From the IMG/VR virus record IMGVR_UViG_3300013936_000002, positions 10,408 through 74,407 of that record: a DNA stretch of 64,000 nt; one strand, given 5' to 3'. The translations under genes and the position numbers were made by a program. This document shows positions 38,439 through 60,980 of the stretch, piece by piece (position 1 is the first letter of the stretch; each line of letters begins with the position of its first letter). The notes beneath the pieces were generated by a model, which was not told the DNA's origin, did not search any database, and was given only the letters and a program-made list of their open reading frames with translations. Source of the stretch: a virus. Taxonomy: Duplodnaviria; Caudoviricetes.

Positions 38439-40010
38439 ATGAGTATTTATGAGAAATTATTTGATTGGCAAAAGGAAATTGTACAAGATTTAAAAGATAA
38501 AAACTCTTATGGATTATTTTTAGACATGGGGTTAGGTAAAACTCCAATATCTTTAGCATTAGCCGAAGTTAATGATTGTGAAAAGGTTTTAGTCGTTTCA
38601 TTAAATGCTAAAGCTCTTGAAGATAAAGATGTTAAAGGATCATTTTGTTGGTGGGGTAGTCAAAGTGCAATGAAATGGAATTGTTATTGCAAAAAGTCCA
38701 TTTTTAATACTAACAAAAAAGGCAAGTGGAATGTAAATGTTAGTACATCAACAAAAGATTTATATTGTATAAATTATGAAGGATTATATGAAAGATTAAA
38801 AACCGAAAAGCGTGGAGTTGTTTTGAACAACAATCTAATGGAATTCTTGAATAGCTGTGGTGGAAAGAAAGTTGCTTTAATATTAGATGAAAGCCATAAG
38901 GTTAAAAATCTTAACTCAATCCAAACACAAGCAATTAAGAAAATAATTCAAACATTGCATTTATATAATTGTACAATTAAAACATATTTGTTAACTGGAA
39001 CACCGTTCACTTGTGGTTATGAAGATTTATACTCGCAACTAAAGATATTAGGATACCCTGAAAACAAAACTCATTTCTTAGATAGATATTGTATTCGTGG
39101 GAACATTAGAAATCTACCTGGCTGGGCGCAACCTATAATTGGTTATAAGAATGAAGATGAGTTAATCGATATTGTTCATCAATATGCAATCACAATTAAA
39201 TCTGTAGAGAAATTAGGAGACAAATTACCAGCAATGGTATTCTCAGACCATGTATTAAAAGAGTCTTTAGATATGAGATTGTTTTCTTCTCAAAAAATAA
39301 AAGTAAAAGAATTAAATAAGATATTAGATGAAAGACAAATAAAATTAGATAGAGAACTCTGGGAATTAGATAATCCTAAAGATATTCAAGTTCCAAATCC
39401 ATTTTATAGAAACATTGATTGCTCAAGTGAAAAGTGGTTAGCAAATACTGCAGCATTAGCTTGGATGAGAGCAAGGCAACTATCAATAGGTTTTCAAGGT
39501 AATAGTGAAGAAGCAAAATGGTTTGATAGAACAAGATTGCAAGTACTTAAAGACTTTTTAGAAAACAATAGAGATAACTATGTATTGTTTTATAACTTTA
39601 CTCCAGAGCTTTTAGAGATATACGATATTTGTCAAGAGCTTGGTTATAACATTGACATTTTTTGTGGAGAGATTAAATCATTAACATTTTATGAAAGGTT
39701 TTCCAAACTGCCTAAAAATGAGAAATTAACAAATGTTGGAAATATAATAATCTCAAATTATGCAAGTGGATCGACTGGAAAAAACTGGCAAGAATACAAT
39801 AAATGTATTTTGTTTTCGATCCCTTTGTTTGCAGATTATGAGCAAGGTTTAAAAAGAATAAATAGATTAGGTCAAGAAAGCAAAATCACAATCTATCATA
39901 GATTCTACTCAAACAATTATTTAGATACTTCTATGCTTAAAGCTCTTGACCAAAAAAAGCAGTATGATTCAGATATGTTCTTGGTTGCTGAAAAAAATCA
40001 AAATATTTAA
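38439..40010 (+). CDS. SNF2-like (SF2) helicase
   Basis: LDMGLGKT, LILDESH.VKN, LLTGTP, Q..KRI.RLGQ. Confidence 0.88.
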   Translation: MSIYEKLFDWQKEIVQDLKDKNSYGLFLDMGLGKTPISLALAEVNDCEKVLVVSLNAKALEDKDVKGSFCWWGSQSAMKWNCYCKKSIFNTNKKGKWNVNVSTSTKDLYCINYEGLYERLKTEKRGVVLNNNLMEFLNSCGGKKVALILDESHKVKNLNSIQTQAIKKIIQTLHLYNCTIKTYLLTGTPFTCGYEDLYSQLKILGYPENKTHFLDRYCIRGNIRNLPGWAQPIIGYKNEDELIDIVHQYAITIKSVEKLGDKLPAMVFSDHVLKESLDMRLFSSQKIKVKELNKILDERQIKLDRELWELDNPKDIQVPNPFYRNIDCSSEKWLANTAALAWMRARQLSIGFQGNSEEAKWFDRTRLQVLKDFLENNRDNYVLFYNFTPELLEIYDICQELGYNIDIFCGEIKSLTFYERFSKLPKNEKLTNVGNIIISNYASGSTGKNWQEYNKCILFSIPLFADYEQGLKRINRLGQESKITIYHRFYSNNYLDTSMLKALDQKKQYDSDMFLVAEKNQNI

Positions 40011-43364: not shown

Positions 43365-43569
43365 ATCTAGCTATTTTTATTTTGCATATTGTTGCTATAT
43401 TTGTTGTTAGATGTACAAGTAGATCCACTCGTATATCAACAATATCTTCAGTTTTAACTAACAACTTGATTGTTGATACAAGATTTTGACACTTAGATTT
43501 TTACATAATTTGAAGATACAAAAAATAGGTCAAATTTTGAGTCCAAAAATTAGCTCTTTTCGAAAAAAT

Positions 43570-43880
43570 CAAACCCATGTAAATATAAAAATATACCCTC
43601 CCCCCAAAATCCAAAAATAAAATATATTATATATATAATATATTTTACCTTTTTTTATTTTTCCTTATATATATTTTTTAAAAAATATCTAATAGAAGAT
43701 ATTTTATATTTATTTATTTATATAAATAAATATATAAATTATTAGGTCATATAAAATGGGGTTAAAAAATCACTAAAAATAAAAATAATTTTTTTTACTC
43801 ATTTTAAACCAAAAAATTAAAAATTAAGTTAACCCCCCCAATTTTTGAAGATTTTTTAATCCCATTTGATAAGGGTTAAT
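43570..43880. other. AT-rich palindrome-rich non-coding region, candidate origin or packaging/terminus site
   Basis: 30-bp and 22-bp perfect AT palindromes, three GGGTTAA motifs, C tracts. Confidence 0.4.
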
Positions 43881-43960
43881 AATAAAAAACTGCTCAAAAA
43901 AGTATATAAAAAAGAAATATGCAAATTTTACGATTAGAAAAAATAATCATTTTTAATAAA

Positions 43961-43994
43961 AACTATTTACATTAAATAAAATCAATGATATAAT
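43961..43994 (+). promoter_or_regulatory. Conserved phage promoter
   Basis: aacta-tttaca-17-tataat with TG. Confidence 0.75.
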
Positions 43995-47347: not shown

Positions 47348-47566
47348 ATGAAATTAAAAGAAATTATAAAGTATTTTAGTAGATATGAAAAGATAACATT
47401 ATCATATAGAAATGAAAATGAACCAAAATTTGAGGGTATAGTGCTTGAACTATGTGATGGCACAATAATGCATGATAAATTATTAAATTCAAAAATAGTA
47501 AAAATTGGAGCTACTCTATTCAATTTATGTATTGAATTGAAAAAAGGAGAAAAAATAAGATTATGA
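47348..47566 (+). CDS. Small protein, MKL[KN] paralog family
   Basis: MKLKEIIK...IVKI. Confidence 0.55.
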   Translation: MKLKEIIKYFSRYEKITLSYRNENEPKFEGIVLELCDGTIMHDKLLNSKIVKIGATLFNLCIELKKGEKIRL

Positions 47567-48006
47567 AAATTAAATTAAAAGATTTAACAGCTAAACAATG
47601 GAACGACAACATGGGTTGCGAGTGTAACAAATATAAAGACTGTAATGGTTGTAGATTTAGATATATAGATTGCTCTACCTCAAACTTTGAAAGCTCATGG
47701 ATTAATCACAAAGAAATATTCAATGATAAATTTTTAGATCAAGAAATAGAAATTGAAATGCCTGATATTTTAAATGAACAAGAAAAAGAATATTTAAAAG
47801 CGGTTATCAAACCATTCAGAGATAGAGTTATTTCAATAAGAAAAAATTTTGATGTGTTTAAAGATGCTTACTCTATATTTATTTATATTAAGAGCACAAT
47901 GGAGATAGGTAAAGTAGAAAGTATAGGTTTACCATTTTTCAAAAATAATATGTATATGGGAATGGAACACACCACAAATTATACTTTAGAAGAATTAGGA
48001 TTATAA
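47563..48006 (+). CDS. Two-domain hypothetical protein (Cys-rich A domain + B domain)
   Basis: A resembles 48010-48258; B resembles 57624-57884. Confidence 0.6.
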   Translation: MKIKLKDLTAKQWNDNMGCECNKYKDCNGCRFRYIDCSTSNFESSWINHKEIFNDKFLDQEIEIEMPDILNEQEKEYLKAVIKPFRDRVISIRKNFDVFKDAYSIFIYIKSTMEIGKVESIGLPFFKNNMYMGMEHTTNYTLEELGL

Positions 48007-48009
48007 AAT

Positions 48010-48258
48010 ATGAAACAATCAATTAAATTGAAAAATATGGTAGAAGAACAATGGGAGCATTTTAAAATGAATGAATGTTATAATGAGATTATAGAATGTG
48101 AAAATTGTCCATTTAAGTATATTGATTGTAATGAATTTGAACTTGAAGATGCATGGGTTAACCATAAAGATTTATTTAGTGATAAATTTTTAGATCAAGA
48201 AGTTGAAATAGAAGATGAAGAGCTATTATCTGAAGAAGATAAAGAAAAGGAAATAAAA
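48010..48258 (+). CDS. Cys-rich A-domain ORF running in frame into the MTase
   Basis: Paralog of the 47563 N-terminus; no stop before the internal ATG at 48259. Confidence 0.5.
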
Positions 48259-48994
48259 ATGGAATTAAACAAAATATATTTAGGAGATGCTTACGAATTA
48301 ATCAAACAAATTCCTGATAAAAGTATTGACTTAATTGTTACTGATCCACCTTATGAAATAAATAGTTTAACAGGTGGTGGTATGTTAAAAGAAAAAAGAA
48401 TAGAAAATTTAATGGACAGTTTAGAAAATGAGAATCTACATATAGGAATTAAAGAAGATATTCTAAACGAATTTATAAGAGTTTGCAAAAAAATAAATGT
48501 TTATATATGGTGCAATAAAACCTTGATTCCTAAGCTATTAGATTTTTTTGTTATCAAGCATAAATGTACATTTGATATAATCACTTGGCACAAAACAAAT
48601 GCAATGCCTTTATGTGGTGGGAAATATTTAACCGATACAGAATATTGCTTATATTTCAAAGATGGAGTAAAACTTAATACAACTTATGATACAGCTAAAA
48701 CTCATTATGAACTACCTATTAATATTCAAGATAAAGCACTTTATTCTCATCCTACTATTAAGCCAATACAAATTATTAAGAACTTAATAACTAACTCAAG
48801 CCTTGAGGGGGGGGGTAGTGCTAGACCCATTTATAGGTTCAGGAACAACAGCTGTTGCATGTAAAGAATTAAATAGACAATTCATAGGTTTTGAATTAAA
48901 TCCAAAGTTTTATGAAATTGCAAACGATAGATTAAATGATGTAACTCAAGTTGATAAAAAGAAAGAAGAACAAGGCTATATGAAATTGTTTTAG
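48259..48994 (+). pseudogene. N4/N6 DNA methyltransferase (beta order), frameshifted at a G9 tract (putative phase-variable OFF state)
   Basis: DLIVTDPPY and HPTIKP in one frame, VLDPFIGSGTT in the +1 frame; junction at G9 48807-48815; G8 joins them. Confidence 0.85.
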
Positions 48995-49006: not shown

Positions 49007-50537
49007 ATGAAAAAAGTTGATGAAGAACAAATATCTTTATTTAGTATGATATATGATGAATTTAAGATTACAAAACCAATTAGATTAATTGAATTATTTG
49101 CAGGCTATGGAAGTCAATCATTAGCATTAAAATATTTAAATGTTAATTTTGAACATTGGAAAATTGCAGAATGGGCAGTAAAATCAATCATTGCTTATAA
49201 AGATTTACATTTTAGTGAAAATAATCAAGATTATTCCAAAAATTTAAGTTTTGAAGAAATAATTAATTATTTAAACGATTTAGGAATATCAATGGATTAT
49301 AATGAACCTATGAATTTAAAACAAATAAAATCTATGGGTGAAAATAAATGTCGTATGGTATTTAATGATATAAAAGCAAGTAATAATCTTGTTAATATAT
49401 CAAAAGTGAAGGGGGGGGGATTTAAACATTGTTGATAGTGATAAGTTTCAATATATAATGACTTATTCCTATCCATGTTGAAAATGACAAGATTTATCAT
49501 TAGCTGGAAAGCAATTAGGAATGACTAAAGGTAGTGGAACAAGAAGCGGTTTATTATGGGAAGTAGAAAGAATTTTAGATGAATTAAAACAAGATAATAT
49601 TCAAGAAATGCCGATACTCTTAATGGAAAATGTTCCAGAAGTTCATTCTAAAAATAATATTAAAGATTTTAGATTATGGATTCAAAAATTAGAATCCTTA
49701 GGTTATACAAATTTTTGTGAAGATTTAAATGCCAAAAATTATGGAATACCTCAAAATAGAGTTAGAACATTTATGATTTCTATTCCAAAAGAATGTATAT
49801 ATTATTTTCCAAAAAAGAAAAAATTAGATATTTTATTAAAAGATTTATACATTAAAAATGTAGATGAAAAATATTTTTTAAAAAACAAACAAATAAATGA
49901 TATTATCCATTGGAAAGCACAACAAGATCCAATCGAAACAATGGATAAAGTAAATAAAACAGGTATTATACCTATTATAACTACAAGAAGTGGAGACTAT
50001 ACAGCTGGTATGATATTAATACCTATTAAAAATAATACTTCTCAAGGATATGAAATGGCAACATTTGGTGATGGTATTAATATTAGTGGTAGAATGAAAT
50101 ATCAAAGAGGTAATGTGCAGCATGGATTATCTCAAACTTTAACTACTAAAAGTAATGTAGGTATTATTAATGAGTTACAATTACTTGGAAATGCAACAAA
50201 TAAAACATTTAACAATGGAAAAGATATTCATCAACAAGATAGATGTTATAATGATAATTTATTGACAACTATTAATACTCATGTATTTCCATATCATTTA
50301 GATAATTTAAGATTTAGAAGATTGATACCTAAAGAACATTTTAGGTTAATGGGAGTTAAAGATAAAGATTTTGAAAAAATTAAATTAAACCAATCTGACC
50401 AATCATTATATCATTTAGCTGGGGATAGCATTGTTGCAACTTGTTTAATGGGTTTATTTGGACAATTATTAGGAATTAATTGGCAAGATAAATTTAATAT
50501 AAAAGAATGGTTTGATTATTTACCTAAAAAAATTTAA
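49007..50537 (+). pseudogene. C5 cytosine DNA methyltransferase interrupted by a G9 frameshift and a 9-nt stop-containing insert
   Basis: Motif I ELFAGYG, IV TYSYPC/QDLS, VI LLMENV, VIII PQNRVR, IX RRLIPKE.FRLMG, X LAGDSIV; G9 at 49411-49419; TGAAAATGA at 49479-49487. Confidence 0.88.
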
Positions 50538-53954: not shown

Positions 53955-54144
53955 AGGTAGAAGTTATGCAAAATGTGAAAATTGTGGATTAGTAAAAGAA
54001 GATGGGAATGTTATATTATTATTTAATGAAACCAATTATCATTGCAGAAAAACAAATCATATTGTTAAAAGATTATATGCTAATGAAAATAGCTTATGGC
54101 TTTGTAAAGATTGTTTAAATGAGCTAAGAAAGGCAATAAAATGA
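53908..54144 (+). CDS. Zinc-ribbon-like small protein
   Basis: CENCG and LCKDC pairs. Confidence 0.55.
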   Translation: MERIYQKKPRKIQMIKGRSYAKCENCGLVKEDGNVILLFNETNYHCRKTNHIVKRLYANENSLWLCKDCLNELRKAIK

Positions 54145-55253
54145 TATATGGTTATGCAAGAGTTTCAACTAAAGAACAAAATTTAGATAGACAACTTGAA
54201 GAATTTAAAAACTATAATATTGATAAAATCTATTGTGAAAAGAAATCAGGAAAGAATTTTAAAGATAGAGATGAATATCAAAAATTATTAAAAAAACTAA
54301 AGAAAGGTGATTTGTTAATTATCATGTCTATTGATAGATTAGGTAGAAATTATGAGGAAATTTTAAATCAATGGAGAATAATTGTTGAAGATAAAAAATG
54401 TGATATTCAAGTTTTAGACTTTCCAATGTTAAATACTAGAAATGGTGGTTATGGACTTGAAGGTAAATTCTTATCAAATATCATACTTCAAGTGTTAGCT
54501 TATGTCGCCGAAAAGGAAAGGCAAAAAATAAAAGAAAGACAAGCTCAAGGAATAGCTATTGCTAAAGCAAAAGGTATTCATATGGGTAGACCTAATTTGG
54601 TGTTTCCACCTAATGCTGATGAAGTGCTTAATAAATATGTTAATAATGAAATATCTAAAGAAGAAGCTATGACATTGTTAAAATGTGCTAATTCAACATT
54701 TTATAAAATGTTACAAATAAAATCATTAAAGAGAAAAAAGATATTAAAGAAAAAATTAAAAAAATATAAACATCCGAAAATTATAATTAAAAAATATAAA
54801 CATTCTAAAATTATAATTAAAAAATATAAGTATCCTAAAACTATAAAAAAAAGATATAAAAAACCTCGTATCGGAATACAAGCTAAAAAATACAAACATC
54901 CTAAAATTAAAGTTATAGCAAAAAAATATAGAAAACCTAAAATTAAAGTTGTAATTAAGAAAAATAAAAAACCTAAAATTATAAGAAAAAAATATAGAAA
55001 ACCTAAAATTAAATTTGAACCAATAATTGTTGTGAATCAAGTGGTTTATTTAAAATCTAAATCAGATTATAAAATAGTAGCTTATAAAAAGAATGGTGAA
55101 AAAGTTGAAGCAAAAACCTTTTTATTATTAAGTAAAAAATTATACACAAATACATCAACTATAAAAAATTATATGAAAGGTAAAAACACTTATTTAAATG
55201 ATGATATAGAAAAAATAGAAAAAGTTTATTATGAAAAGGAGACAAAGAAATGA
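54141..55253 (+). CDS. Small serine recombinase (resolvase/invertase) with Lys-rich repeat extension
   Basis: YGYARVST.EQ, GDLLII.SIDRLGR, ER..I.ERQ..GIA.AK..G...GRP. Confidence 0.9.
   Translation: MIYGYARVSTKEQNLDRQLEEFKNYNIDKIYCEKKSGKNFKDRDEYQKLLKKLKKGDLLIIMSIDRLGRNYEEILNQWRIIVEDKKCDIQVLDFPMLNTRNGGYGLEGKFLSNIILQVLAYVAEKERQKIKERQAQGIAIAKAKGIHMGRPNLVFPPNADEVLNKYVNNEISKEEAMTLLKCANSTFYKMLQIKSLKRKKILKKKLKKYKHPKIIIKKYKHSKIIIKKYKYPKTIKKRYKKPRIGIQAKKYKHPKIKVIAKKYRKPKIKVVIKKNKKPKIIRKKYRKPKIKFEPIIVVNQVVYLKSKSDYKIVAYKKNGEKVEAKTFLLLSKKLYTNTSTIKNYMKGKNTYLNDDIEKIEKVYYEKETKK
54759..55010 (+). repeat. Eight degenerate coding tandem repeats (KKY[KR]xPKI)
   Basis: 30-36-nt units such as aaaaaatataaacatccgaaaattataatt. 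Confidence 0.85.
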
Positions 55254-55416: not shown

Positions 55417-56757
55417 ATGAAGTTATATTATGAAGAAGAAAACGCATTTAAATTATATGAGGGTAAAATGCAAGATGTTTTACCAACATTAAAAGAAAAG
55501 TCAATTGATAGTATTGTATGTGATCCACCTTATGAGATTAATTTTATGCAAAATGGGTGGGATAATTCATCAGTTGCATTTCAAAAAGAAACTTGGCAAC
55601 ATTGTTTTAGAGTTTTAAAACCAGGTGGATATTTATTAGCTTTTGGTGGAACTAGAACATATCATAGAATAGCATGTGCTATTGAAGATGCAGGATTTGA
55701 GATTAGAGATTGTATTATGTATTTATATGGTAGTGGTATGCCAAAAGGTCAAAATGTAGGTTTAATGATTGATAAAAAAAGAGGTGTAGATAATAGAACA
55801 GGAAATGTTGTTGCTGGTGTTCATAACTCTGATAGTTTAGTTAACATAGCATCTTCTTGTAAACCTATATACGAAGAAAGACAAGCACAAAATGAGTATG
55901 CTGGGTATAATACAGCGTTAAAACCAGCTTATGAACCAGTTATTGTTGCAAGAAAACCAGTCGAAGGAACGGTGGTTGAAAACATCTTAAAATATGGTGT
56001 AGGAGCAATGAATATAGATGAATGTAGAGTTGGTATAACTGGTGGTGTAAAAACATTAGGTAATATTCCAAATAAAGAAAGAAACGAATCAATTACACCA
56101 ATTATGGATCGAAAGATATTAGGTCAAGTCGCTTTAGATAAAGGTAGATATCCTGCTAATGTGATAACTGATGGTTCAGATGAAGTAGCTGCTAATATGC
56201 CAATAAATGAATCACATTATAGTAAACCAAATTTTGAACCATGTAAAAATCAAAATAGTGCTGTTAAAATTACTTCAATAAATTATAAAAGTGGAGGTAT
56301 TCATTTTGAAGATAGTGGGTCAGCTTGTAGATATTTCTATACAGCTAAAACAAGTTCAAAAGATAGAGATGAAGGACTTGATATATTTGAAGATGAAAAA
56401 GTATGGACTCAAGATGGTAGATTTAATAGTTTTGATATTTATAAAGATAATGCACCACGAAAAAATATTCATCCAACGGTTAAACCAACAACATTAATGC
56501 AATATTTAGTTCGTTTAGTAACTCCTAAAGGTGGAACAGTACTTGATCCATTTATGGGGTCAGGATCAACTGGAAAAGCAACTATGTTTGAGAATAGAGA
56601 AAGAAATGCTAATTACAAATTTATAGGTGTTGAAATGACTGAAAAATATTTACCAATATGTAAAGCACGAATTGATTATGCACTTCATAAATTTGAATAT
56701 GATATAGAAAAAGAAAAATTAGAAGATGAAAAAAATGGAGTTGTTAGACTTTTCTAA
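55417..56757 (+). CDS. N4/N6 DNA methyltransferase (intact, long variable region)
   Basis: DSIVCDPPY, LKPAYEP, HPTVKP..LM.YL, VLDPFMGSGSTG. Confidence 0.92.
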   Translation: MKLYYEEENAFKLYEGKMQDVLPTLKEKSIDSIVCDPPYEINFMQNGWDNSSVAFQKETWQHCFRVLKPGGYLLAFGGTRTYHRIACAIEDAGFEIRDCIMYLYGSGMPKGQNVGLMIDKKRGVDNRTGNVVAGVHNSDSLVNIASSCKPIYEERQAQNEYAGYNTALKPAYEPVIVARKPVEGTVVENILKYGVGAMNIDECRVGITGGVKTLGNIPNKERNESITPIMDRKILGQVALDKGRYPANVITDGSDEVAANMPINESHYSKPNFEPCKNQNSAVKITSINYKSGGIHFEDSGSACRYFYTAKTSSKDRDEGLDIFEDEKVWTQDGRFNSFDIYKDNAPRKNIHPTVKPTTLMQYLVRLVTPKGGTVLDPFMGSGSTGKATMFENRERNANYKFIGVEMTEKYLPICKARIDYALHKFEYDIEKEKLEDEKNGVVRLF

Positions 56758-59544: not shown

Positions 59545-59859
59545 ATGGATAGAAAAACAAATAAAATATTAAAAAAATTTTTTAATTTAAAAGCAAAACA
59601 AATGTTGTGTAAATTATATTTAAGTAGCAAATTGTTTAAGGCTTGTAAAAATAAATCTAAAGTTGAGAAAACCTATGAAAAAATTGATATGAAATTATAT
59701 ATTTTTATTAAAGCTCATATTAACACACTTTCTCAATTTGATTTAGAAAAAGAAGCTGAAAATTATCAAATGACTATTAAAGACCAAATGCGATTTTCAA
59801 AAAGATATTTTGGTGAAAAATATGATATTAACAATTTGTTGGAGGCAATTGAAATATGA
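59545..59859 (+). CDS. Hypothetical basic protein
   Basis: ATGA overlap with metK. Confidence 0.5.
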   Translation: MDRKTNKILKKFFNLKAKQMLCKLYLSSKLFKACKNKSKVEKTYEKIDMKLYIFIKAHINTLSQFDLEKEAENYQMTIKDQMRFSKRYFGEKYDINNLLEAIEI

Positions 59860-60980
59860 TTTATGAAATTGGAAAAATAAAAAAATATAAAAATTATTCT
59901 TATACATTTACAAATGAAATAGTATTTAGAGGTCATCCTGATAAAGTATGCGACCAAATAGCAGCAGCTATTGTTGATGAATATTATAAATATGATAAAA
60001 ATGTAAGAGCAGGAATTGAAGTAGTTGGTGGTAAAAATAAACTATTCATTACTGGTGAATTAACATCAAGTGTTGAATTAGATATTGAAAAAATTGCTAA
60101 AAGAGTTTTAAGAGATTGTGGTTATAATTCTAATTTAGAGATTATAATTAATATTTCTAAACAATCTTCTAATATTAATCAAGGAGTAGATAAAGGAGAG
60201 ACATTAGGTGCTGGCGATCAAGGAATAATGTTTGGTTATGCTACTAATGAAACTTCGTTCTTATTACCTAAAGCAATGTTAATATTACAAGACTTTGCTA
60301 AAGCATATGATGAAATAAGAAAAGAAAATAGTAATGTATTTTATTCAGATGGTAAAGCACAAATAACTGGAGAATATGATGAAAATGATAATTTATTACA
60401 AATTACAACATTTAATGTTTCTTATCAAAATTGTGAAACAAAGCGACAAACAACTGATGCTTTATTATTAGATAAAATTATTTCCATATGTGATTATTAT
60501 AAAGTTCCATTATGCAATGTAATTATCAATAATACTGGCAAATTTAAAATTGGTGGTTTTGAGGCTGATAGTGGATTGACTGGTAGAAAGATAGTTGTTG
60601 ATACATATCAAGGATTTTGTAAAGTTGGTGGTGGTAATTTAAATGGTAAAGACTTTACAAAAGTTGATGTAACAGGAACTTATGCTGCTAGAGAATTAGC
60701 TACTTTAATTCTTAGAGTAAATCAAAAAAAATATCATATTGTTGAAACTCAATTGTCTTATATTATAGGAAATGAACTTCCATCATCAATTAGTATTAAA
60801 ATAAATGGTAAATATATTTCTTACAATCAAGCAAGCGAATTATTAGAAAAAGTTATTCAACAAAATAATTGCAAGTCGTTATATGAGCTTTATTCAGTTG
60901 ATAATATTATTAAACGATTAACTCAAAATGTTTGTCTTGAAGAAAATGCTAAATTTGGTCATATTTATGCTTATCATTAA
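59856..60980 (+). CDS. metK: S-adenosylmethionine synthetase
   Basis: GHPDKVCDQI, GAGDQGIMFGYA, DGKAQIT, ADSGLTGRKIVVDTY, GGG...GKD.TKVD. Confidence 0.95.
   Translation: MIYEIGKIKKYKNYSYTFTNEIVFRGHPDKVCDQIAAAIVDEYYKYDKNVRAGIEVVGGKNKLFITGELTSSVELDIEKIAKRVLRDCGYNSNLEIIINISKQSSNINQGVDKGETLGAGDQGIMFGYATNETSFLLPKAMLILQDFAKAYDEIRKENSNVFYSDGKAQITGEYDENDNLLQITTFNVSYQNCETKRQTTDALLLDKIISICDYYKVPLCNVIINNTGKFKIGGFEADSGLTGRKIVVDTYQGFCKVGGGNLNGKDFTKVDVTGTYAARELATLILRVNQKKYHIVETQLSYIIGNELPSSISIKINGKYISYNQASELLEKVIQQNNCKSLYELYSVDNIIKRLTQNVCLEENAKFGHIYAYH

Follow-up and report, generated by a model that had tools for sequence, protein, structure and literature searches.

The run of nine G inside the C5 DNA methyltransferase gene of this uncultured phage is probably a contingency (phase-variable) tract, OFF in the genome recorded here; we put the chance of this at roughly 70%. 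The phage is represented by a circularly permuted contig of 74,407 bp with a GC content of 26%, and the window, the whole stretch of DNA analysed, covers 64 kb of it. The tract lies in the second of two adjacent methyltransferase genes, the features of which are as follows.

48259-48806, plus strand: N6/N4 (beta-class) DNA methyltransferase upstream of its tract, with the DPPY catalytic half (PF01555)
48807-48815, plus strand: first G9 tract, at L-E-G-G immediately ahead of motif I (VVLDPFIGSGTT); in frame at G8
48816-48994, plus strand: 3' part of the N6/N4 methyltransferase with the SAM-binding motif I, read only at G8 (PF01555)
49007-49410, plus strand: 5' coding part of the C5 DNA methyltransferase with motif I (FAGYG), from the open reading frame list; dN/dS of 0.03-0.15 against relatives
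49411-49419, plus strand: G9 homopolymer tract at K-G-G-D-L (motif III G-x-D-L); in frame at G8, shifted by +1 at G9
49420-49478, plus strand: segment read in the G8 frame only, (D)LNIVDSDKFQYIMTYSYPC, up to the codon of the motif IV catalytic Cys
49433-49435, plus strand: TGA stop closing the 142-residue product of the G9 state (...KVKGGGFKHC), a product found in identical form on 9 public contigs
49479-49487, plus strand: nine-base insert TGA AAA TGA, which separates the Cys codon from the Gln codon in motif IV (PC/QDLS)
49488-50537, plus strand: 3' part of the C5 methyltransferase, from QDLS (motif IV) to the stop codon (PF00145, 95.9 bits, profile positions 85-318)

Two G9 Tracts Interrupt Adjacent Methyltransferase Genes

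The run at 49411-49419 is exactly nine G, laid over the codons AAG-GGG-GGG-GAT. The open reading frame from 49007 to 49435 translates to ...NISKVKGGGFKHC and then stops; G9 shifts the gene by +1 (frame 2 to frame 0), and the product ends five codons on, upstream of motif IV. The first-pass annotation of this DNA had placed the departure from frame at NISKVK-GGG, and we confirmed both the positions and the frame. When the sequence is read from position 49419, the equivalent of G8, it gives DLNIVDSDKFQYIMTYSYPC, the last residue of which is the catalytic Cys of motif IV. The further claim that the G8 reading reaches catalytic motif IV is therefore correct, but the reading does not pass the motif, since TGA AAA TGA comes next. 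Tract length thus sets the product, which has 142 residues at G9 and 157 at G8, the latter reaching the catalytic Cys before the two stops.

Motifs I, IV, VI, VIII, IX and X place the gene in PF00145. The 3' part holds ENV (VI), QNRVR (VIII), a variable target-recognition region, RRLIPKE (IX) and GDSI (X), the last being the norm at this motif (33 of 43 intact relatives), and it stays open for 349 codons after the insert. The 5' part of a G8-form homologue aligns to PF00145 profile positions 2-52, below threshold. The reading frame through the catalytic motif is broken by the +1 shift at G9 and by TGA AAA TGA in motif IV.

The G9 at 48807-48815, with the codon layout GAG-GGG-GGG-GTA, also shifts the N6/N4 gene by +1 (frame 1 to frame 2), so that the two tracts, which are 604 bp apart, share a register, as had been claimed. 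The 3' part of this gene aligns to PF01555 profile positions 182-220 (E = 1e-15), and the Pfam assignments (PF00145 for the C5 gene, PF01555 for the N6/N4 gene) bear out the earlier description of two neighbouring methyltransferases of different classes, each with a G9 at Gly-Gly. In three relatives, L001 (73.8 kb) and L002 (75.7 kb) from IMG/VR and L012 from a metagenome collection, the intact N6/N4 gene encodes 244 residues; its tract is G8 in L002 and G7, in an altered, in-frame context, in L001 and L012.

Some differences in local gene arrangement were also seen. A Cys-rich ORF of about 80 residues (48010-48258) starts upstream at 48010 and, in the window, runs in frame into the N6/N4 methyltransferase, forming a fusion; relatives have it as a separate gene (P0150, P0155). 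The gene preceding the fused ORF (47563-48006) opens with a paralogous Cys-rich domain. A PAPS-reductase-like (PP-loop) gene lies between both methyltransferases in L001 (2464-3477) and L012 and is absent in the window and L002. The more distant locus L081 has a gene (1338-2479) with a similar PP-loop-like motif that bears two G tracts, G9 and G8, and has no Pfam match because the gene is broken.

The Tracts Exceed Chance Expectation

The two G9 tracts are the only G runs of at least 5 in the whole 74,407-bp genome; under a first-order Markov model, about 0.004 runs of at least G8 would be expected. GGG is the rarest Gly codon (4.7% of Gly codons), and GGG-GGG pairs encode 2 of the 66 Gly-Gly dipeptides, exactly the two tracts. 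Taken together, these figures indicate that the tracts are not due to chance. Both share the codon pattern NAG-GGG-GGG-G, composed of the rare AAG/GAG and GGG codons. The second Gly of K-G-x-D-L varies among homologues (G, C, S, V, K and E); since this residue is free to vary, the C5 tract represents synonymous choices at a permissive site. The C5 G9 is accordingly a coding homopolymer that exceeds the length of about 7 bases expected of a contingency locus and is over-represented relative to composition.

Tract Length Differs between Near-Identical Strains

Relatives were sought by DNA pattern scans, agnostic to tract length, of IMG/VR, a metagenome collection and a genome collection. The IMG/VR scan returned only L001 and L002, and the metagenome scan yielded L012 as the single new relative, plus chance matches; the genome-collection scan gave no relative and chance matches only. 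L012 is identical to L001 across the C5 gene. In all three (3/3) the C5 tract is G8 and in frame through ...YSYPC. The C5 variable region differs in size, with 349 codons after the insert in the window (49488-50537) versus 275-277 in L001 and L002 (4001-4801), and the enzymes of the window and of L001/L002 probably recognise different targets.

The N-terminal product falls into one cluster at 90% identity with 37 members, and the following counts are from the 15 listed members.

G8 type, 157 residues: 10 distinct sequences (plus one 155-residue variant), about 32 contigs, among the 15 listed members
G9 type, 142/143 residues ending GGGFKHC: 4 distinct sequences, 16 contigs, among the 15 listed members

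Over its first 136 residues, the G9 product of the window (9 contigs) matches the G8 product P0125 (5 contigs) exactly. The same holds on a second background, where the G9 product P0131 is identical over that stretch to two G8 products. Because both states are found on two identical backgrounds, the G8/G9 difference has at least two origins and distinguishes strains that are nearly identical. A length difference between near-identical genomes, as expected of a contingency locus, is thus present. The C-terminal product of the window differs from P0137 by one residue; the longest contigs of P0137 and P0125 are of the same size, and P0137 was taken to belong to the likely G8 twin strain.

L002 has G8 at both tracts, and the window has G9 at both. 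In a contig of 77 kb the N6 gene is apparently in frame and the C5 gene at G9, a pairing drawn only from matching contig sizes. From these combinations the two tracts appear not to be locked together.

A homopolymer miscall would offer a simpler account: the true phage would be G8 at both tracts, and the G9s would be sequencing or assembly errors in the record. Both tracts are off by the same +1 in one record, as a systematic overcall of G runs would give, there is a G8 product whose N-terminal sequence is identical, and the 9 contigs with the G9 product of the window may be re-assemblies of one sample. However, the assembly shows no gene broken at an A8 or T8 run (17 of 22 lie inside open frames of at least 60 codons, and the other 5 are spanned by no such frame). 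What is more, three sources with 9 contigs in all record the exact G9 product, products of the G9 type are seen on four different sequence backgrounds, and tract lengths repeat across independent samples (L001 = L012 and, in the wider family, L076 = L077). We therefore consider a miscall unlikely. Even with an erroneous record, the tract and its variation among relatives would stand.

G Tracts Recur across the Methyltransferase Family

A profile of the C5 N-terminal part retrieved 80 IMG/VR loci (L016-L095, 411 kb), which were oriented on the methyltransferase strand. The sense strand of these loci contains 55 G runs of at least 7 and no C runs of at least 7, and nearly all of the G runs fall where the sequence is homologous to C5 or N6/N4 methyltransferases. 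Two divergent lineages have a tract at K/R-G-G-D-L (G9 in L081 and G7 in L095), and in L044 a G9 immediately precedes VILDPF of the N6/N4 gene, where the N6/N4 tract of the window also lies. Several genes are multi-tract (L076/L077, L081, L086, L087, L092 and L095); their repeated target-recognition modules bear 3-6 tracts per gene, at the GGG loop. This census suggests that phase variation of anti-restriction functions on the phage side is common, and that it is concentrated in the methyltransferase genes of gut-type phages.

Over about 2.3 kb, the only small indels that distinguish the trio L086/L087/L095 are tract-length changes, one 8-nt insert at motif IV and one 3-nt indel. The tract lengths in L086/L087/L095 are 7/11/7, 9/8/8, 9/8/6, 7/9/- and -/10/8. 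When we attempted to assign one frame to each segment, three inter-tract segments of the trio had stops in all frames, so that these multi-tract genes are broken beyond their runs of G7 or longer.

The frame breaks at 39 of the 55 family tracts, with an offset of +1 in 17 and +2 in 22. That so many tracts are out of frame in genes still under purifying selection would be expected from programmed slippage by RNA polymerase or by the ribosome at the G run, whereby the G8 and G9 alleles both give some in-frame product and the tract acts as an expression attenuator and not as a genetic switch. On long homopolymers, slippage during transcription is an established phenomenon of bacteria and IS elements. 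One G7, moreover, is out of frame in L086, L087 and L095 (3/3), with a downstream dN/dS of 0-0.18, and such a tract, out of frame in three diverged phages and followed by constrained sequence, is not easily reconciled with a pure DNA-level ON/OFF switch. On the other hand, the in-frame G8 is the commoner state in the clade of the window (about 32 versus 16 contigs among the listed members). Since the offsets in the family run in both directions, no single directional shift fits them, and random slippage fits better than a directional programmed shift. We judge programmed slippage to be quite unlikely here and prefer a contingency tract that changes length in the DNA.

The C5 Gene Is Maintained despite Stops at Motif IV

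In comparisons between lineages (dS of about 0.15-0.35), dN/dS was 0.03-0.15 in the part before the tract and 0.15-0.29 in the part after the insert. Fisher tests supported purifying selection in both C5 parts, with p values from 2e-4 to 7e-12 (about 1e-8 for the 3' part), and the 20 codons between the tract and the insert are amino-acid identical in all relatives. No stops or indels were found in the C5 gene beyond the tract and the insert.

The insert at 49479-49487, TGA AAA TGA, places two in-frame stops right after the Cys codon, and the sequence then continues with QDLSLAGK.... Under standard decoding the G8 allele therefore ends at 157 residues. The insert is kept as TGA CAA TGA in L001, L002 and L012, while most family members are without it and read PCQDLS. 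Inserts of differing sequence are present at motif IV, near 2950-2975, in five further loci.

L020: TAG TCA, at motif IV
L040: TAA CTT, at motif IV
L027: TGA CAT, at motif IV
L041: TAAATTCA, at motif IV
L095: TAAGACCT, at motif IV, 8 nt

Six lineages (the clade of the window and these five) thus have inserts at motif IV that begin with an in-frame stop and measure 6, 8 or 9 nt. The 8-nt insert of L095 has no equivalent in its close relatives L086 and L087, and four other loci (L031, L054, L064 and L085) have an intein at the same motif IV Cys. From this distribution motif IV appears to be a hot spot for insertion in this family of phage C5 methyltransferases.

A gene with two independent lesions, a frameshift and two in-frame stops in its catalytic motif, could be a dead pseudogene, killed by the motif IV stops and decaying further through the G9 frameshift. 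This is highly improbable, because purifying selection is seen on both sides of the tract. In addition, all of the C5 motifs are intact, the 9-nt insert is kept with both stops in three lineages, and the insert-bearing C5 genes of the five other lineages are otherwise open for 156-510 codons. Decay elsewhere in the gene was the observation that the first-pass annotation had named as counting against a switch; it was looked for, and the selection, the motifs and the lack of any further lesion all point the other way.

An active C5 enzyme would, even at G8, need a putative bypass of the two stops. A stop follows the take-off codon in 7/7 inserts, and the landing triplet matches 2/3 bases in four and 1/3 in three. 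The insert, though not the tract, resembles the bypass of T4 gene 60 in that a stop directly follows a sense codon and coding resumes in a conserved motif after a gap. It differs in that the gap is 50 nt in gene 60 and 9 nt in the window, and in that the take-off and landing triplets of the window (TGT and TGA) match at 2/3 bases.

These results bear on the proposal, made from the window, that the tracts are independent ON/OFF switches. The tract varies heritably in length and so moves the gene in and out of frame, and the two tracts are not locked together, both of which agree with it; an active "ON" C5 enzyme by standard decoding does not follow. The corollary of "up to four methylation states" is unsupported as stated, because it assumes that G8 gives an active C5 enzyme, whereas every member of the clade has two stops after the catalytic Cys that would have to be bypassed.

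Proposed Mechanism and Known Counterparts

In our model the G9 run would be a hypermutable homopolymer in the C5 gene, at the Gly-x-Asp-Leu of motif III, and slipped-strand mispairing during phage DNA replication would add or remove one G. The sequence shows that the G8 allele is in frame and that G9 is a null allele whose protein ends before the catalytic Cys. Because G7 and G10 would also end at once, such a switch would have two states. The N6/N4 tract, of the same design and likewise at G9 (OFF), would switch independently of the C5 tract. The C5 tract would gate only the access to a second obstacle, the conserved 9-nt insert with its two stops, at which bypass would be required. We infer that the purpose may be bet-hedging: the population would always hold DNA-methylating and non-methylating variants, and would thereby be prepared both for hosts whose restriction targets unmethylated DNA and for hosts whose restriction targets methylated DNA. 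The selective value of C5 switching would depend on a putative bypass of the two stops.

A more speculative and rather unlikely extension is that phages of gut and rumen type carry a two-layer control of methyltransferases. The first layer would consist of poly-G tracts on conserved or permissive Gly codons, namely in motif III, at the Gly-Gly before motif I and in the GGG loop of each target-recognition module of multi-module enzymes, switching whole enzymes or single specificities at the DNA level. The second would be ribosome hopping at the stop-first inserts of 6, 8 or 9 nt in motif IV, and the C5 gene of the window would have both layers.

Contingency tracts in phage modification genes are already known, and the basic idea is not new. 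A poly-G tract in bpm, the adenine methyltransferase gene of Bordetella phage BPP-1, was reportedly described by Liu and colleagues in 2004. We found a single G/C run of at least 7 in the BPP-1 record AY029185, namely a G8 on the sense strand of bpm that encodes PGG-VVLDPFAGSGTT. Like the genes studied here, bpm is an orphan phage DNA methyltransferase with a sense-strand G run at Gly-Gly, and its tract has the same position as that of the N6/N4 gene of the window, LEGG-VVLDPFIGSGTT. A G run at the Gly-Gly before motif I (VVLDPFxGSGTT), the BPP-1 arrangement, is found at 48807-48815 and not at the C5 tract, which is in a C5 enzyme at motif III, whereas the BPP-1 tract is in an N6/N4 enzyme. 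The window also differs in having two tracts, in adjacent enzymes of different classes, and in its GC content (26% versus 65% in BPP-1).

Phasevarions are built on simple repeats in Type III mod and Type I hsd genes, and poly-G methyltransferase genes are known in Campylobacter and Helicobacter. In these systems, too, repeat slippage turns a DNA methyltransferase ON or OFF, but they are chromosomal restriction-modification genes that reprogram host expression, and those of the window are orphan phage enzymes. In Campylobacter Fletchervirus, tracts of G7-G11 are said, after work by Sorensen and colleagues in 2021, to create ON/OFF subpopulations and to alter host recognition. Those are likewise ON/OFF poly-G tracts of phages, but they lie in receptor-binding genes and concern host recognition, not DNA modification.

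The A9 repeat of the T2 gene agt has been shown experimentally to be a contingency locus with reversible frameshifts, and its switching trades off TgvAB, which cuts modified DNA, against McrA/BC, which cuts unmodified DNA (bioRxiv 10.1101/2025.10.21.683753). The same preprint also cites the poly-G tract in the BPP-1 methylase bpm and poly-G tracts in the receptor-binding protein genes of Campylobacter Fletchervirus (bioRxiv 10.1101/2025.10.21.683753). As in the model proposed here, a homopolymer lies inside a phage DNA-modification gene and the hedging logic is the same. The T2 case concerns an A9 in a glucosyltransferase of a cultured coliphage and is experimental, whereas ours concerns G9s in methyltransferases of an uncultured phage and was read from DNA sequence.

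The present phage would be a well-supported case of an uncultured phage that varies its own DNA methylation by repeat slippage; the two adjacent enzymes belong to different classes, and each state is documented among near-identical strains. The experimental demonstration of phase variation of anti-restriction functions on the phage side is only recent (T2 agt). The findings bear on host-range prediction, on the interpretation of "broken" methyltransferase genes in viromes and on the design of phage therapy.

Genome and Gene Neighbourhood

Under translation table 11 the gene map of the phage is compact; the minus strand carries the structural genes, and the plus strand those for early functions or DNA metabolism. 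TGA terminates 12 of the 80 long ORFs and no tRNA genes were found in the phage genome, so that TGA is a genuine stop. Readthrough of the stops by recoding of TGA under code 4 is ruled out by the same three observations. A search of GenBank phages found no close relative and only distant methyltransferase matches.

The genes beside the C5 methyltransferase are the second methyltransferase and small phage ORFs, and the sole helicase-like gene, SNF2/ResIII (38439-40010), is 9 kb from the methyltransferase pair. No partner nuclease gene (res or hsdR/hsdS) was found adjoining either methyltransferase, and the pair does not have the make-up of a phasevarion restriction-modification system. Both are orphan phage enzymes, with a likely role in protection of phage DNA. 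A serine recombinase (54141-55253), a third N6/N4 methyltransferase (55417-56757) and a SAM synthetase (59856-60980) are encoded nearby, none with a G tract.

The start of the contig (at least 50 and fewer than 100 nt; genome 1-100) duplicates the 5' end of the N6/N4 methyltransferase (window 48268-48350). The repeated stretch sits near the start of a fourth methyltransferase-like gene, which spans the contig junction, and the repeat suggests paralogues that may be able to recombine. The only other G/C runs in the window are a C6 at 43600 and a C7 at 43833. Both fall within an ORF-free, extremely AT-rich spacer of 0.5 kb (window 43490-43990), which may be a regulatory or replication region.
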